Sequence record: PZ544694.1
DNA length: 56,700 nucleotides
Direction: 5' to 3' (one strand)
DNA from: a phage
The position numbers and the translations under genes were made by a program. The first letter of the stretch is position 1. Every line of letters starts with the position of its first letter. The notes below the pieces were generated by a model that saw only the letters and a program-made list of their open reading frames with translations, did not search any database and was not told where the DNA came from. Shown piece by piece: positions 4,054 through 56,700 of the stretch.

Positions 4054-5577
4054 ATGCGAAAGAAATTCTCGAAACGTACGGTTGGGAAGACTAAAGTTAA
4101 CCTACTTGAAGAAATCAGGAAAGGTAGAAAACTTGTTGAAAGACAACGGGAAGACTTACACGAGTATCAAGTTGAAGCCCGACAACTGGCGCATGACATT
4201 CCATTCTGCGGATTATTCCTCGAAATGGGTATAGGCAAAACCGTAATAACCGGAACGCTGATCGCCGACTTACTTGATAACTTTGAAGTAGATAGAGTTC
4301 TCATTATAGGCCCTCGTAGGGTGGCTAAAGTAACATGGCCGGACGAATTCATGGAGTGGGGTCATCTATGTGGGTATAAAGTAACGCCGGCAGTCGGAAC
4401 ACCCAAGGAAAGACTAGCGGTACTAAATAGCAATAGTCCTATCGTATCCATAAACCGAGAGAATGTAAGCTGGCTAGTAAACTATTACAAAGGCAAGTGG
4501 CCGTTCGATATGGTGGTCATAGACGAGTCGAGTTCCTTTAAGTCTCACAAATCTAAGCGGTTTAAGGACTTAACTAAAGTCAGACCGAGGATAAAACGAC
4601 TAATCGAGTTGACGGCCACCCCAAATGGCGAGGGATTTACTTCGTTCTTTTCTCAAATATATTTACTTGATTACGGTAAACGGTTCGGCCGTAGCTTCAA
4701 TAAGTTTAGGGATAAATACTTCGAGTACAACCCGTATAACCACAGCATCAAGCCGAGAGAAGATACGGAGATGCGTATCTTAGAAAAGATAAAAGATATA
4801 TGCGTAGTTATGCGAGCAGAAGACTATCTCGATCGAGTACCGTATGAGCCAAAGGTGATCCCGGTAAAACTCAATAAGAAGATCACCAAGGAGTATTTCG
4901 ACTTCCAAAAGAATTTAGTCATGATGATACCCGAAGCGGAAAACGTCATAGTGGAAGCGCAATCGGCAGCGATACTCGCATTGAAACTGCTACAAATGTG
5001 CTCCGGCGTTATTTACAACACGTACTATGACGGGATAGATGAGAACGAGGAGCCGATAAGGAAGACCGACATCTATGATATCCACGAGGAGAAACTAGAC
5101 GCGCTCGAAGTGTTTCTGGAAGAAGCAAAGGAAGCCGGAAAGAATGTTTTCCTTGGGTATCACTTTCGGTCATCACGAGAAAGAATATTAGCCCGATTCC
5201 CGGATATCGTCGAGATGGATAAAGACGGAAATAACATAAAACAATGGAACGCGGGGCGAATAAAAGTTTACATGGCACACCCTCAAAGTGCGGGGCACGG
5301 CTTGAATTTACAGCGGGGCGGACATACAATTCTTTTCTATGACATTCCGTATTCGTTCGAGAACTATGACCAATTTATCGGCCGGCTCGATAGGCAAGGT
5401 CAAAAGCACCGAGTAACAGTACACCACTTAGTTGCGGTCGGAACAAATGAAGATGGCCGAACAGTCCAACTAGCCGACCGCCACGTTTATAACAATCTGA
5501 GACGTAAGGAAGAAAACCAAGATTGGGCCTTGAAGACCTTACGTGATCTCAGAAAAGCGATGAAAAAGGAAGTTTAG
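4054..5577 (+). CDS. SNF2-family (DEAD/DEAH-like) helicase
   Basis: 507 aa; motifs GIGKT (I), VVIDESS (II), LTATP (III), QSAGHGLNLQ and QFIGRLDRQGQ (VI). Confidence 0.85.
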   Translation: MRKKFSKRTVGKTKVNLLEEIRKGRKLVERQREDLHEYQVEARQLAHDIPFCGLFLEMGIGKTVITGTLIADLLDNFEVDRVLIIGPRRVAKVTWPDEFMEWGHLCGYKVTPAVGTPKERLAVLNSNSPIVSINRENVSWLVNYYKGKWPFDMVVIDESSSFKSHKSKRFKDLTKVRPRIKRLIELTATPNGEGFTSFFSQIYLLDYGKRFGRSFNKFRDKYFEYNPYNHSIKPREDTEMRILEKIKDICVVMRAEDYLDRVPYEPKVIPVKLNKKITKEYFDFQKNLVMMIPEAENVIVEAQSAAILALKLLQMCSGVIYNTYYDGIDENEEPIRKTDIYDIHEEKLDALEVFLEEAKEAGKNVFLGYHFRSSRERILARFPDIVEMDKDGNNIKQWNAGRIKVYMAHPQSAGHGLNLQRGGHTILFYDIPYSFENYDQFIGRLDRQGQKHRVTVHHLVAVGTNEDGRTVQLADRHVYNNLRRKEENQDWALKTLRDLRKAMKKEV

Positions 5578-53091: not shown

Positions 53092-53439
53092 ATGTCAGAG
53101 ACCAAAGAAACTGTAGTACAACGCGTGGCGCTTCAAACGATCATCTTACGTCGTAACGGCCAGCAATTCGTTCCGGCCATCGGCGATGTAGTTGAACTCA
53201 CAACCTCCGAGTTAGAACAGATTAACGCAACTAACCCTAGCGCTATCGGCCACATTAAGATTAATCAATCTGTGGCAAAGGCCCTCGTCGAAAAGACGGT
53301 TGATATGGAAGCCATCAAACGAGAAGCACTAGAACAAGCCCGTGCAGAACTCGCAGCCGAACAAGCTAAATCCGCAGACACGGCAAAGAGCAATAAGAAA
53401 GGAGCCAAAGCGAAGACCGACGCTGACGACGATCTATAA
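53092..53439 (+). CDS. hypothetical head-module protein (FI-like position)
   Basis: 115 aa; helical Ala/Glu/Lys-rich C-terminus. Confidence 0.3.
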   Translation: MSETKETVVQRVALQTIILRRNGQQFVPAIGDVVELTTSELEQINATNPSAIGHIKINQSVAKALVEKTVDMEAIKREALEQARAELAAEQAKSADTAKSNKKGAKAKTDADDDL

Positions 53440-54507
53440 ATGGCTGGACAGTATTCAACCGTACAACTTTTACCGGTATTGCGTAAAATCGAATCGCTAC
53501 CGTCGTTTTTCTTAGGGTTCTTCCCGAACACGATCAACTTTGATACCGACGAAATCGCGATCGATAAAGTAAGCGACAACTACAAACGCGTAGCACCGTT
53601 CGTCGCTCCTAACGTACAAGGCGTGGTGATCAAAGAGAAAGGTTTCCACACCGTAGCGTTTAAACCGGCGTACCTGAAACCTAAACATGCTATCGACCCA
53701 TCGATGGTGTTTCCTCGTCGCCCGGGCGAAAACCTACTAACTGGTTCCTTGACGCCAGACCAAAAATTCAAGATGGCCGTCGCAGAAACGCTACGCAAAC
53801 ATAAGTCAATGATCGAGAATACGTTCGAGGTTATGGCAGCGTCAGCGGTGATCTATGGCTACGTTGATGTTGAAGGGCCGGACTATCCGAAAACCCGTGT
53901 AGACTTCCGACGTGACCCGTCGCTGACCATCACAACCGACTGGACGGCTCCCGGCATCACATCGGAGCAGACCTTTAAAGACTTACGCTTAGGCAAGCAA
54001 CTGGTTAATGACAAGTCTGCTAGCGGTACGGTTGTTCGTGACTACATCTTCGGCCAAGACGCTTGGGATTTATTCGTCAAGATCAACAAAGACGAATTGT
54101 TCGGCGATCACGGCTTGATGGATACTCGTTTCAAAGGTTCTGAAACATTGATTACGCGTATCTCAGATGGCCTTGAGGGCATTGAATACATGGGCCGTAT
54201 CGCGGGTGTAAATGGCGCGGGTGCAATGGATATCTACGTCAACACGCAGAAATTCGTTAACCAAGACGGCAAAGAAGAATACCTAGTACCACAAGGCGGT
54301 ATCGTAGGTGTATCTCGTGCTATCGAGGGCTACCGTTGCTTCGGTGCAATCCACGACAAGAAAGCGGGCTTCCGTTCATTAGAAATGTTCCCTAAAATGT
54401 GGGAAGAAGAAGACCCAAGTGTTGATTATGTGATGACGCAATCGGCTCCGTTAATGGTTCCACGCGATCCTAACACTTCATTCTTACTGATGGTATCCAC
54501 CAAGTAA
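53440..54507 (+). CDS. major capsid protein (lambda gpE family)
   Basis: 355 aa; YLKPKHAIDP vs lambda YVKPKHEVNP; QSAPLMVPRDPNTSFLLMV vs QSAPLMLLADPDEFVSVQLA. Confidence 0.85.
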   Translation: MAGQYSTVQLLPVLRKIESLPSFFLGFFPNTINFDTDEIAIDKVSDNYKRVAPFVAPNVQGVVIKEKGFHTVAFKPAYLKPKHAIDPSMVFPRRPGENLLTGSLTPDQKFKMAVAETLRKHKSMIENTFEVMAASAVIYGYVDVEGPDYPKTRVDFRRDPSLTITTDWTAPGITSEQTFKDLRLGKQLVNDKSASGTVVRDYIFGQDAWDLFVKINKDELFGDHGLMDTRFKGSETLITRISDGLEGIEYMGRIAGVNGAGAMDIYVNTQKFVNQDGKEEYLVPQGGIVGVSRAIEGYRCFGAIHDKKAGFRSLEMFPKMWEEEDPSVDYVMTQSAPLMVPRDPNTSFLLMVSTK

Positions 54508-54903
54508 ATGTTAGCAGGTTCTCGCGACCTTAACGCATGGGAACCAACTCAGATTTTCGCCGGCGAGTCACCGATCCATACGGACAACGGCGTGGCGTCA
54601 AGCGATATCGATATGTACCAAGTGGTATATCGTAAAGAAGACGGCACTATCGCAGCATTTGACGACACGGTTTATCCGGGTACGGGTTCCGGCGGTGACG
54701 AGGGTGAGGGGACTGCAACGGCGATATTACCAGTCGGGATCTCGGCACAAGCAACGAAAAGCGGTCAGACAGTACAGTTCTACACCGGCGGTACGTTTAA
54801 TATCGATGCGATCACATGGCCGAAAGCCATTGATGACCTAGTGAAAGCCAAATCGCTTTTCGAGTTAGGTCGCTCAACAATCATTATCAAAAAACTGTAT
54901 TAA
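54508..54903 (+). CDS. head decoration protein (lambda gpD-like)
   Basis: 131 aa; TATAILPVGISAQATKSGQTVQFYTGGTF...WPKA...FELGRSTIII colinear with lambda D. Confidence 0.65.
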   Translation: MLAGSRDLNAWEPTQIFAGESPIHTDNGVASSDIDMYQVVYRKEDGTIAAFDDTVYPGTGSGGDEGEGTATAILPVGISAQATKSGQTVQFYTGGTFNIDAITWPKAIDDLVKAKSLFELGRSTIIIKKLY

Positions 54904-56181
54904 ATGACGCAAGGCACTTATCAAGCTGCTGCCGTACAAGCGGTACAAGCTATTAATCTACGCCCGGCGTTTCTGGACGAACGTTCAGTCGGTTCTATGG
55001 GGAGTAACTTACAGTTGCTAGCTAACGTAGAGGCCGACATGACTGACGAAACTTGGTCAACAATGCTAAACAACGTGTGTATGACGTATGGGGTGTCTAA
55101 CAGCGCACCAACTAACAAACCATACGGATTCTCTAACGGAACCGCTTTCATTCCGGTACACGGCTCTCTAATTAACCGCTTCGGCGGTTCTTGGGGATTC
55201 GTTACAGGATATAGCTATATTCGTAGAGCACACGCAATGGCCTTGAATGATCCGGACGTCGAGAGAATCGTCTATGACGTTAATTCGGGTGGAGGCGAGG
55301 CAGCCGGTTGTATGGAACTATCGGACGAGATTTTCAGTCGTCGCGGTGAAAAACCTACACTGGCCGTCATCAACTCAAGTTGCTATTCTGCTGCTTACGC
55401 GATCGCAAGTGCGTGTGACGCGATAAGTATCACGCCCTCGGGTGGCGCGGGTTCAATTGGGGCGTTGATTATTCACGCTGATATGTCTAAAATGTTGTCT
55501 GACGTAGGAATTAAAGTATCTGTGATACGCGCCGGCGACAGAAAGGCAGAAACCAACCCTTTCGAGGAACTTAGCGATCAAGCGAGAGCAGAGCTACAAT
55601 CAGGCGTCAACGCTTGTAGAAAAACGTTTGTAGCAACCGTAGCAAGAAATCGCGGTTTGTCGGAAAAGCTAGTATTCGACACCGAAGCGAAAACATACGA
55701 CGCGAATGATGCTAAAGACTTAGGTCTAGTTGACCGCGTTGAATCGCCAGAAATGGCATTACACAACTTCATTAACGGAACAGAGAGCGAAACTGATATG
55801 GCCGTAAAAAACACAAACGCGGAGCAACCGACAATCAATGCGTCCGAAGAACAAGCTAAAGGTGCGAAAGCAGAACAAGCGCGTATCAAGGGCATTCTTG
55901 GTTGTGATGAAGCAAAAGGGCGCGAATCGTTAGCACAACACATCGCGTTCAACACCTCAATGAGCGAAGAAGATGCTAAGGCAATGCTTAACGCTTCTCC
56001 GGTTGAGAAAGCGGAAGAACCAAAGCAAGAAGAAAAGCCGAACGCTTTTAAGAAAGCAATGGACGAAGGCGAACAGCCGGGCATCAAAGCCGAGCCACAG
56101 GACACGGATAAGCCCTTAGCAACGGACGAGAATAACTCGTTATTAGACGACCTTTCAGGTCTTGGCTATTTCGGTAACTAA
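54904..56181 (+). CDS. head maturation protease (S49 / SppA-like, lambda gpC-like) with scaffold-like C-terminal region
   Basis: 425 aa; S49 core GFVTGYSYIRRAH...VINSSCYSAAYAIASACD...GSIGALIIH; C-terminal ~110 aa Ala/Glu/Lys-rich, Nu3-like. Confidence 0.8.
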   Translation: MTQGTYQAAAVQAVQAINLRPAFLDERSVGSMGSNLQLLANVEADMTDETWSTMLNNVCMTYGVSNSAPTNKPYGFSNGTAFIPVHGSLINRFGGSWGFVTGYSYIRRAHAMALNDPDVERIVYDVNSGGGEAAGCMELSDEIFSRRGEKPTLAVINSSCYSAAYAIASACDAISITPSGGAGSIGALIIHADMSKMLSDVGIKVSVIRAGDRKAETNPFEELSDQARAELQSGVNACRKTFVATVARNRGLSEKLVFDTEAKTYDANDAKDLGLVDRVESPEMALHNFINGTESETDMAVKNTNAEQPTINASEEQAKGAKAEQARIKGILGCDEAKGRESLAQHIAFNTSMSEEDAKAMLNASPVEKAEEPKQEEKPNAFKKAMDEGEQPGIKAEPQDTDKPLATDENNSLLDDLSGLGYFGN

Positions 56182-56700
56182 ATGAACCTTTCATACGAAC
56201 AGTTTAGCCGAGACTACACGAAGACTAACTATTCTTCCGCGAGAGCCTCAATGGGGGAAACATGGAAATTCATGCAGTCTCGCAAAAAGATCATTGCTGA
56301 TGCTTTCGCTACAAACATTTATGCGTTGTGGTTAGAGGAGATGATAAACAAAAACGAAATCCCGTTGCCACGAGGAAAAACGAGCGACTGGTTTTACGAA
56401 CCGTTAGTGAAAGACTGTTTAATTCGTTGCGACTGGATAGGTGCAGCCCGCGGTCAAATCGACGAGAAGAAAGAGACCGAAGCAGCTATCATGAGAATTA
56501 ACAGTGGTCTGAGCACTCGTGAGAAAGAAATCGCTCGACTCGGCGAAGACTGGAGAGAGATTTTTAGGCAGTTAGAACGAGAAAAACGAATAAAAGATAA
56601 ATACGGGCTTGTTTTCTCCGGAGATGTGAGTAATATATCCGCTAACGAGAAAACAAACTCGGAAGATGACGAAGAAACTAACAGTGGGGATTCGGAATGA
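56182..56700 (+). CDS. portal protein, lambda gpB family (C-terminal ~30 percent only)
   Basis: 172 aa; NLSYEQFSRDY...YSSARAS...WLEEMI...CDWIGAARGQID...INSGLSTREKE colinear with the lambda gpB C-terminal third; continues ORF 277-1401 with no residues missing; ends with TGA at the last window base. Confidence 0.8.
   Translation: MNLSYEQFSRDYTKTNYSSARASMGETWKFMQSRKKIIADAFATNIYALWLEEMINKNEIPLPRGKTSDWFYEPLVKDCLIRCDWIGAARGQIDEKKETEAAIMRINSGLSTREKEIARLGEDWREIFRQLEREKRIKDKYGLVFSGDVSNISANEKTNSEDDEETNSGDSE

Follow-up and report, generated by a model that had tools for sequence, protein, structure and literature searches.

In phage Mu the scaffold Z is an in-frame C-terminal product of the protease gene I, and in phage lambda the scaffold Nu3 is nested in the same way in the protease gene C. 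Herpesviruses make a long protease-scaffold protein and an abundant scaffold (UL26 and UL26.5) that share their C-terminus and their reading frame; however, the protease fold is unrelated and the nested product arises from its own promoter and mRNA, not from an internal ribosome-binding site. The gpO protein of phage P2, whose protease is not an S49 enzyme, acts to our knowledge as a single fusion polypeptide without a known nested start. Here we describe a gene of Escherichia phage E21 (Casjensviridae, Lavrentievavirus) that encodes an S49 protease followed by a Nu3-like module. It occupies positions 54904 to 56181 of a stretch of 56,700 bases (sequence record PZ544694.1), hereafter called the window. 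We consider it fairly likely that this gene is the Casjensviridae counterpart of lambda C/Nu3, with one reading frame and two products, and by analogy with lambda the scaffold is probably translated separately from the internal codon Met299. The arrangement is of the textbook lambda kind and nothing new in kind, while it is unannotated in the E21, DanisaurMW and chi records.

The likeness to lambda begins with the gene order (terminase, W, portal, protease, D, E), which is the same in both phages, and includes the partner genes for a D-type decoration protein and an E-type capsid protein. Both proteins comprise an S49 core, a variable linker with an in-frame ATG, a helical core with the motif A-E-x-x-R-I-x-G-I-L and an acidic tail. 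BLASTP against lambda gpC gave an E-value of 2e-45 at 30% identity and aligned amino acids (aa) 72-415 to lambda residues 74-436, running through the Nu3 part; one conserved block reads AEQARIKGILGCDEAKGRESLAQHIAFNTSMSEEDAKAML in E21 and AENSRIMGILNCEEAHGREEQARVLAETPGMTVKTARRIL in lambda. A Nu3-like C-terminus had already been proposed in a first-pass annotation made from the letters alone, and this idea stands: the last 127 aa by themselves matched phrog_17040 (4.2e-27), phrog_8399 'head scaffolding protein' (1.2e-9) and phrog_8940 'capsid assembly protein' (5.4e-9), and lambda residues 309-439 match phrog_8399 end to end. The identity of the two proteins is low, and the linker of E21 is about 25 aa shorter than that of lambda. 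The head genes of Mu, including the gpI/gpZ pair, are of a different lineage, and no Mu protein was among the database matches examined.

The window consists of the concatenated predicted coding sequences (CDSs) of E21, all turned to the plus strand. When walked from base 1 on that strand, 85 open reading frames (ORFs) tile it perfectly, each start directly following the previous stop, with 0 intergenic bases. Its head region is 100% identical to E21 (MN604053.1 / NC_052983.1), in four separate opposite-strand pieces. Sequence within a CDS is therefore native, while gene-start ribosome-binding sites, promoters and terminators are absent by construction, and features that depend on neighbours or intergenic DNA were taken from the native E21 genome. 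There the order is TerS, TerL, a W-like adaptor, portal, protease, 13 nt, decoration gene D, 12 nt and major capsid gene E, and in DanisaurMW the protease gene likewise sits between the portal and the decoration and major capsid genes. The window differs in that the decoration gene precedes the protease gene: since CDSs were turned to one strand and joined, the operon order is reversed for genes on the minus strand of the record.

Domain organization of the protein

The gene and its parts are as follows.

54904..56181, plus strand: full-length ORF with ATG start (from the ORF list), 425 aa, lambda gpC-type protease plus Nu3-type scaffold module
54904..55116, plus strand: N-terminal extension, aa 1-71, with AlphaFold helices at aa 3-17, 26-40 and 48-60 (predicted local distance difference test, pLDDT, about 78-87)
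55117..55776, plus strand: S49 (SppA-like) serine protease domain, aa 72-291, from Pfam, SppA matches and Foldseek
55387..55389, plus strand: codon of Ser162, predicted catalytic serine, aligned with the serine of the SMAASGGY motif of B. subtilis SppA
55543..55545, plus strand: codon of Lys214, predicted general base, aligned with an Ala position in chain 3RST
55777..55839, plus strand: variable disordered linker, aa 292-312 (pLDDT <50 at aa 294-310)
55798..56181, plus strand: nested in-frame ORF of 127 aa plus stop, predicted Nu3-type scaffolding protein, from PHROG and hidden Markov model (HMM) matches
55840..55995, plus strand: conserved three-helix core, aa 313-364, helices at aa 313-333, 341-350 and 355-364 (pLDDT 92-94)
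55996..56178, plus strand: low-confidence acidic tail with helices at aa 381-388 and 412-419 (pLDDT <50 at aa 371-379 and 392-410)

The 425-aa protein is 100% identical to the E21 'head maturation protease' JT325_gp63 and matches phrog_53 at 2.2e-113. The first-pass annotation had placed an S49 protease core in roughly the first 300 aa. This agrees with the Pfam match to Peptidase_S49 (PF01343) at aa 147-286 (8.9e-28; 97.6 bits against a cut-off of 24.9) and with the AlphaFold model (79 homologues; mean pLDDT 80.4), which is confident for aa 1-291. Within the core pLDDT is mostly >=90, but 62-74 at aa 181-220. Solved SppA structures are similar in sequence over aa 74-279, and in a Foldseek search the core matched B. 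subtilis SppA 3RST with a target-normalised template modelling (TM) score of 0.83; 3RST and 4KWB both gave E-values of about 1e-15 with target TM 0.78-0.83, followed by ClpP and crotonase folds. For the N-terminal extension (aa 1-71) a Pfam scan found no family match.

Ser162 and Lys214 are both invariant among the 79 homologues. The serine of the SMAASGGY motif, with which Ser162 aligns, is what we take to be the catalytic Ser147 of B. subtilis SppA, and the 3RST crystal is presumably that of a K199A mutant, with Lys199 at the Ala position that aligns with Lys214. Judged from sequence and model, aa 72-291 are an S49 Ser/Lys protease with predicted activity. SppA (B. subtilis 3RST/4KWB, E. coli 3BF0) has the same fold and the same Ser/Lys positions, but it is a membrane-associated enzyme of the cell and lacks a scaffold module. 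The protein is not an SppA orthologue, as the NCBIfam SppA models score far under their cut-offs (110.9 against 155.45 bits).

The public names of the identical protein conflict: 'head maturation protease', 'prohead protease ClpP', 'head-tail protein' and 'unclassified head-tail protein' are all in use, and in Salmonella phage SD-13_S19 the same protein is called 'tail fiber protein'. The recorded hosts of near-identical phages are Proteus, Salmonella, Escherichia and Pseudomonas.

Behind the linker, aa 313-425 form an Ala/Glu/Lys-rich, partly helical scaffold module. The composition noticed in the first-pass annotation is real: Ala, Glu and Lys make up 37.8% of aa 299-425 compared to 20.5% in all window proteins, which is the 98th percentile of 127-aa windows. 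The helical appearance, in contrast, holds for about half of this region (aa 313-333, 341-350, 355-364, 381-388 and 412-419), the remainder being predicted with low confidence; a separate model of the last 127 aa alone gave the same picture as the full-length model. The three-helix core holds the A-E-x-x-R-I-x-G-I-L motif common to lambda Nu3, where it aligns with AENSRIMGILNCEEAHGRE, and its residues R327 and I331 are invariant among the 79 homologues. In the tail F382, M386 and P392 are invariant and G421 is nearly so. The terminal helix of this tail might serve as a capsid-binding element.

An HMM built from the C-terminal modules of relatives recovered the E21 gene at 7.8e-39 among the 85 window ORFs. 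In a search of a viral structure library the module matched only the C-termini of homologous S49 proteases, and no link to another scaffold fold emerged from that search. Its top structural match is a 119-aa stand-alone entry of the chi-like Salmonella phage 37, labelled 'Prohead protease'; thus a stand-alone protein matching the module has been deposited at least once.

A proposed internal start conserved among relatives

The proposed nested start and the sequence before it are the following.

55798..55800, plus strand: in-frame ATG of Met299, from which the nested scaffold is proposed to start; the only in-frame start codon within the linker itself
55783..55787, plus strand: GAGAG, the only Shine-Dalgarno (SD)-like match before the internal ATG, weak (duplex with the 16S rRNA 3' end of -2.9 kcal/mol)

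Since the ribosome-binding site of E21 itself is weak, support for internal initiation comes mainly from relatives. We surveyed 85 homologous loci from viral contigs plus lambda. The fused architecture is present in 74 of them, and 73 of these 74 carry an in-frame ATG in the variable linker; the lone fused locus without one has a GTG behind CUGGAGGCC. Among the database homologues, 77 of 79 have a Met in the linker. The linker sequence is otherwise unconserved among relatives, including the surroundings of the internal Met. The linker ATG lies at a median of 28 aa past the GLxD motif that marks the end of the protease domain (interquartile range 25-31; 22 aa in E21), with a median nested product of 140 aa across relatives.

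In 97% of cases the best linker ATG is preceded by an SD with a duplex energy of <= -5 kcal/mol (median -6.5 kcal/mol), mostly at a spacing of 5-7 nt. The same threshold is reached by 7% of 608 in-frame ATGs in other parts of these genes, by 12% of out-of-frame ATGs and by 15% of all linker codon positions. Collapsed below 60% identity, the loci form 49 lineages. A linker ATG with an SD of <= -5 kcal/mol is found in 47 of them, where 11.4 would be expected at random linker codons, and none of 200,000 simulations exceeded 26 lineages.

The remaining 11 loci are protease-only: their ORF ends at about 290-350 aa, and in 11 of 11 the next ORF carries the module (E-values of 4.5e-20 to 3.4e-6; L061, L075, L076, L077, L081, L083, L085, L088, L090, L091 and L093). 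These separate ORFs measure about 200-315 aa from stop to stop. Because the module is found in a separate downstream ORF in these relatives, it exists as a free-standing protein, and the family comprises both the fused-and-nested and the separate-gene arrangement.

The comparison with lambda C/Nu3, as suggested in the first-pass annotation, holds for the homology, including the Nu3 part, while the annotated start of lambda nu3 has no counterpart. RefSeq starts nu3 at Met239 (5132), which is unconserved in E21, where the aligned codon is GTC (Val235). The linker ATG conserved in the family instead corresponds to lambda Met309 (5342), which lies in the same variable linker. In lambda this codon follows a very strong SD (CAGGAGGG, -10.8 kcal/mol), in contrast to the weak one of E21. 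Going by the sequence comparison, we suggest that 5342, and not the RefSeq start at 5132, is the conserved start of nu3. In the lambda locus of the survey (L006, NC_001416) the two starts are at positions 2633 (5132) and 2843 (5342), and the SD of Met239 lies 14 nt away. With its 131 aa the PHROG 8399 profile agrees with the shorter form of Nu3; both forms occur in public databases.

Does E21 use the internal start?

For E21 the first-pass annotation had proposed an internal ATG or GTG with an SD motif somewhere around 55750-55900. Two in-frame ATGs are present in that range, Met284 (55753) and Met299 (55798). The latter lies in the disordered linker, but its SD is poor: GAGAG, about 10-11 nt upstream, is all there is. 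On its own this gives at most a weakly positive answer to the proposed check. Several observations weigh against internal initiation at this codon. Among 73 relatives scored, the E21 site is the weakest, and the sites of its closest kin are no stronger or hardly stronger (-2.9 kcal/mol in L095 and L096, -4.5 in Kokobel1); good sites return in the next-closest relatives (L011 with -7.6 kcal/mol at normal spacing, L097 with -6.6 at about 11 nt). The acidic linkers naturally give purine-rich, SD-like codons, an effect that the 15% linker control may not fully remove. The exact 127-aa product is absent from a collection of 15 billion proteins, as are its Kokobel1 and chi counterparts, and no nested product is annotated in the two E21 records, in DanisaurMW or in both chi records. 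Furthermore, we found no protein, ribosome-profiling or N-terminal sequence data for any Casjensviridae phage. Finally, the synonymous-site signal described below rests on six codons.

The weak SD gives weight to a first alternative, namely that the protein works in the single-polypeptide mode of P2 gpO. In the E21 subclade the internal start would then have degenerated and serve rarely or not at all, and the full-length 425-aa protein would be scaffold and protease at once, without a separate scaffold species. This is less likely than internal initiation, but it is the strongest competitor. The weakness of the SD throughout the subclade looks like a loss in the lineage, not like a sequencing error. 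However, every member of the subclade keeps the ATG despite about 25-29% nucleotide divergence, and the mRNA near Met299 is unusually unstructured. The 50-nt window around it (-25 to +25) folds at -4.8 kcal/mol, compared to a gene mean of -8.9 (92nd percentile), which is close to the value at the true gene start (-3.9 kcal/mol). Synonymous sites in the codons that follow also show unusual conservation: when E21 and relatives with 71-77% nucleotide identity to it were compared four ways, codons 302-313 showed the top synonymous conservation of the gene (6 of 6 identical compared to 32% on average). Over the 8 codons preceding Met299, nucleotide identity reaches only the 67th percentile, which does not support a conserved upstream element. 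Several real genes in this phage group likewise have SDs as weak as this one (-2.7 and -2.9 kcal/mol), while some of these might be translationally coupled. In addition, protease numbers equal to those of the scaffold would be unusual for lambda-type heads. In favour of a single polypeptide, P2 is reported to have one gene for both the protease and the scaffold function (PMC8508860).

A further scenario takes up a short A/C-rich element behind the internal ATG.

55804..55819, plus strand: GTAAAAAACACAAACG, A/C-rich stretch of 16 nt that begins 6 nt downstream of the A of the internal ATG

A second copy of this stretch, GT[A/G]AAAAACACAAACG, sits exactly at the GTG with which decoration gene D natively starts. 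The native locus (L001) has two matches, at 1413-1428 and 1804-1819, where 0.00 are expected from shuffles, and both copies encode VKNTN; the window holds only one because its D CDS starts 21 nt later. Shorter versions are kept in L095 and L096 (GTTAAAAAC), and Kokobel1 has ACTAAAAAC at the internal site. One might speculate that the Lavrentievavirus/Kokobel1 subclade lost the SD and kept the ATG, and either initiates via this unstructured A/C-rich element or is part-way to a single fusion protein. We regard this as rather improbable. If true, two high-copy head proteins, the scaffold and D, could share an SD-independent enhancer and be co-regulated, for example by binding ribosomal protein S1.

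We also scored every in-frame ATG, GTG and TTG of the gene for SDs. High scores within the protease core, at Leu38 (-8.1), Met137 (-7.6) and Met46 (-5.8 kcal/mol), were rejected as they would yield truncated proteases; these sites score high because conserved protein motifs such as GGGEAAGCME have SD-like codons by necessity. Of the codons scored, Met299 is the only credible internal start. An internal promoter, as in herpesvirus UL26.5, found no support (1 sigma-70-like site compared to 1.2 expected), and no terminator-like sites were found inside the E21 protease gene.

With initiation at both starts, the gene would function much as C/Nu3 does in lambda. It is from lambda that we take that E21 uses Met299, how much of each product is made, and how assembly and clean-up proceed. 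Translation from the ATG at 54904 would yield, as the minor product, the 425-aa protein of S49 Ser/Lys protease, disordered linker and Nu3-type scaffold module. Translation from the ATG at 55798 (Met299) would yield the 127-aa scaffold module alone in larger amounts. This scaffold would guide the E-type capsid protein as it polymerises around the portal, and the C-terminal module common to both products would bring the protease into the growing procapsid. Once assembly is complete, scaffold and protease alike would be degraded by the protease, with the fragments leaving before DNA is packaged. Natively the start codon of the protease gene overlaps the stop codon of the portal gene as ATGA, which suggests that its translation is coupled to that of the portal.

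If this is correct, E21, chi and at least some other Casjensviridae carry their scaffold concealed in a gene labelled 'head maturation protease'. Counts of head-assembly genes, the design of phage-like particles and prohead proteomics for such phages would then miss it. As a rule for S49 prohead protease genes, one should look for an ATG with an SD about 25-31 codons past the GLxD motif.

Search for another scaffold

The first-pass annotation had seen no scaffold gene between the protease and decoration genes. While the concatenated window cannot show this, the native order does: the gaps of 13 nt and 12 nt leave no room for an extra gene between the protease and capsid genes. A separate scaffold gene was not found elsewhere either, neither in the head module nor by homology in the window. 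The module HMM detected no second copy among the 85 window ORFs (next best E = 0.59), and ten head and neck ORFs scanned against PHROG matched no scaffold family. An HK97-type scaffold, a delta domain of about 100 aa at the N-terminus of the capsid protein, was rejected: capsid residues 6-347 align to positions 1-324 of the 329 positions of the Phage_cap_E model, and since residue 6 already aligns to model position 1, the capsid protein lacks a delta domain. Thus from the HMM, PHROG and capsid searches the scaffold function has no other visible home in the genome.

This bears on a second alternative, according to which the C-terminal region is a mere targeting or regulatory tail and the scaffold is a host factor or a non-homologous protein encoded at another place. 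Disorder is indeed predicted for part of the tail, and a 115-aa protein without known function (53092-53439; DUF7443, phrog_38433) has an Ala/Glu/Lys-rich, strongly charged C-terminal tail as well. However, the region is homologous to lambda Nu3, which is a genetically defined scaffold, the module is a separate gene in 11 relatives, and no ORF of the head module matches a scaffold family. The 115-aa protein is natively encoded directly after the major capsid gene, where lambda has its head-completion genes. We therefore consider this alternative very unlikely.

Least probable of all is a nested scaffold that starts elsewhere in frame, at Met284 (55753), GTG Val207 (55522) or TTG Leu252 (55657): RefSeq does place the lambda nu3 start inside the protease domain, and GTG 55522 lies within about 30 codons of the position aligned with lambda Met239 and has AGGA about 11-12 nt upstream (-4.2 kcal/mol), but that aligned position is GTC and unconserved in E21, all three codons are inside confidently folded protease helices or strands (Met284 in a helix), Met284 and Leu252 lack an SD (+0.2 and -2.3 kcal/mol), the regions of Val207 and Met284 are structured (-11.6 and -10.0 kcal/mol), and the relatives have their SD and ATG in the linker and not at these positions.

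Neighbouring genes and further observations

Three neighbouring features complete the head region of the window.

56182..56700, plus strand: C-terminal portal gene piece, whose Pfam Phage_portal_2 match covers only model positions 321-353
54508..54903, plus strand: head decoration gene, lambda D family (Pfam HDPD 2.8e-7; phrog_49), natively 13 nt after the protease gene
53440..54507, plus strand: major capsid protein, lambda E family, 355 aa (Pfam Phage_cap_E 9.1e-45)

Because the origin of the circular record falls within the portal gene, this gene appears in two parts, an N-terminal piece at 277-1401 of the window and the C-terminal piece listed above. The former ends in a non-native TAA and the latter starts with a non-native ATG; natively the C-terminal piece begins with AACCTTTCA at the end of the record, and the relative DanisaurMW has TTA at the position of this ATG. 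The adaptor gene (1-276) was placed before the N-terminal portal piece, out of record order. The decoration CDS of the window starts at an internal ATG (54508), whereas GenBank and RefSeq start it at a GTG 21 nt earlier that is preceded by AGGGG (1804-1824 of the native locus L001). From its sequence context this GTG looks like the real start of the decoration gene.

Opposite the scaffold-coding region an antisense ORF of 175 aa is present on the minus strand (55578-56105). In our view it reflects the Ala/Glu/Lys-rich codons of the sense strand and is not a gene.

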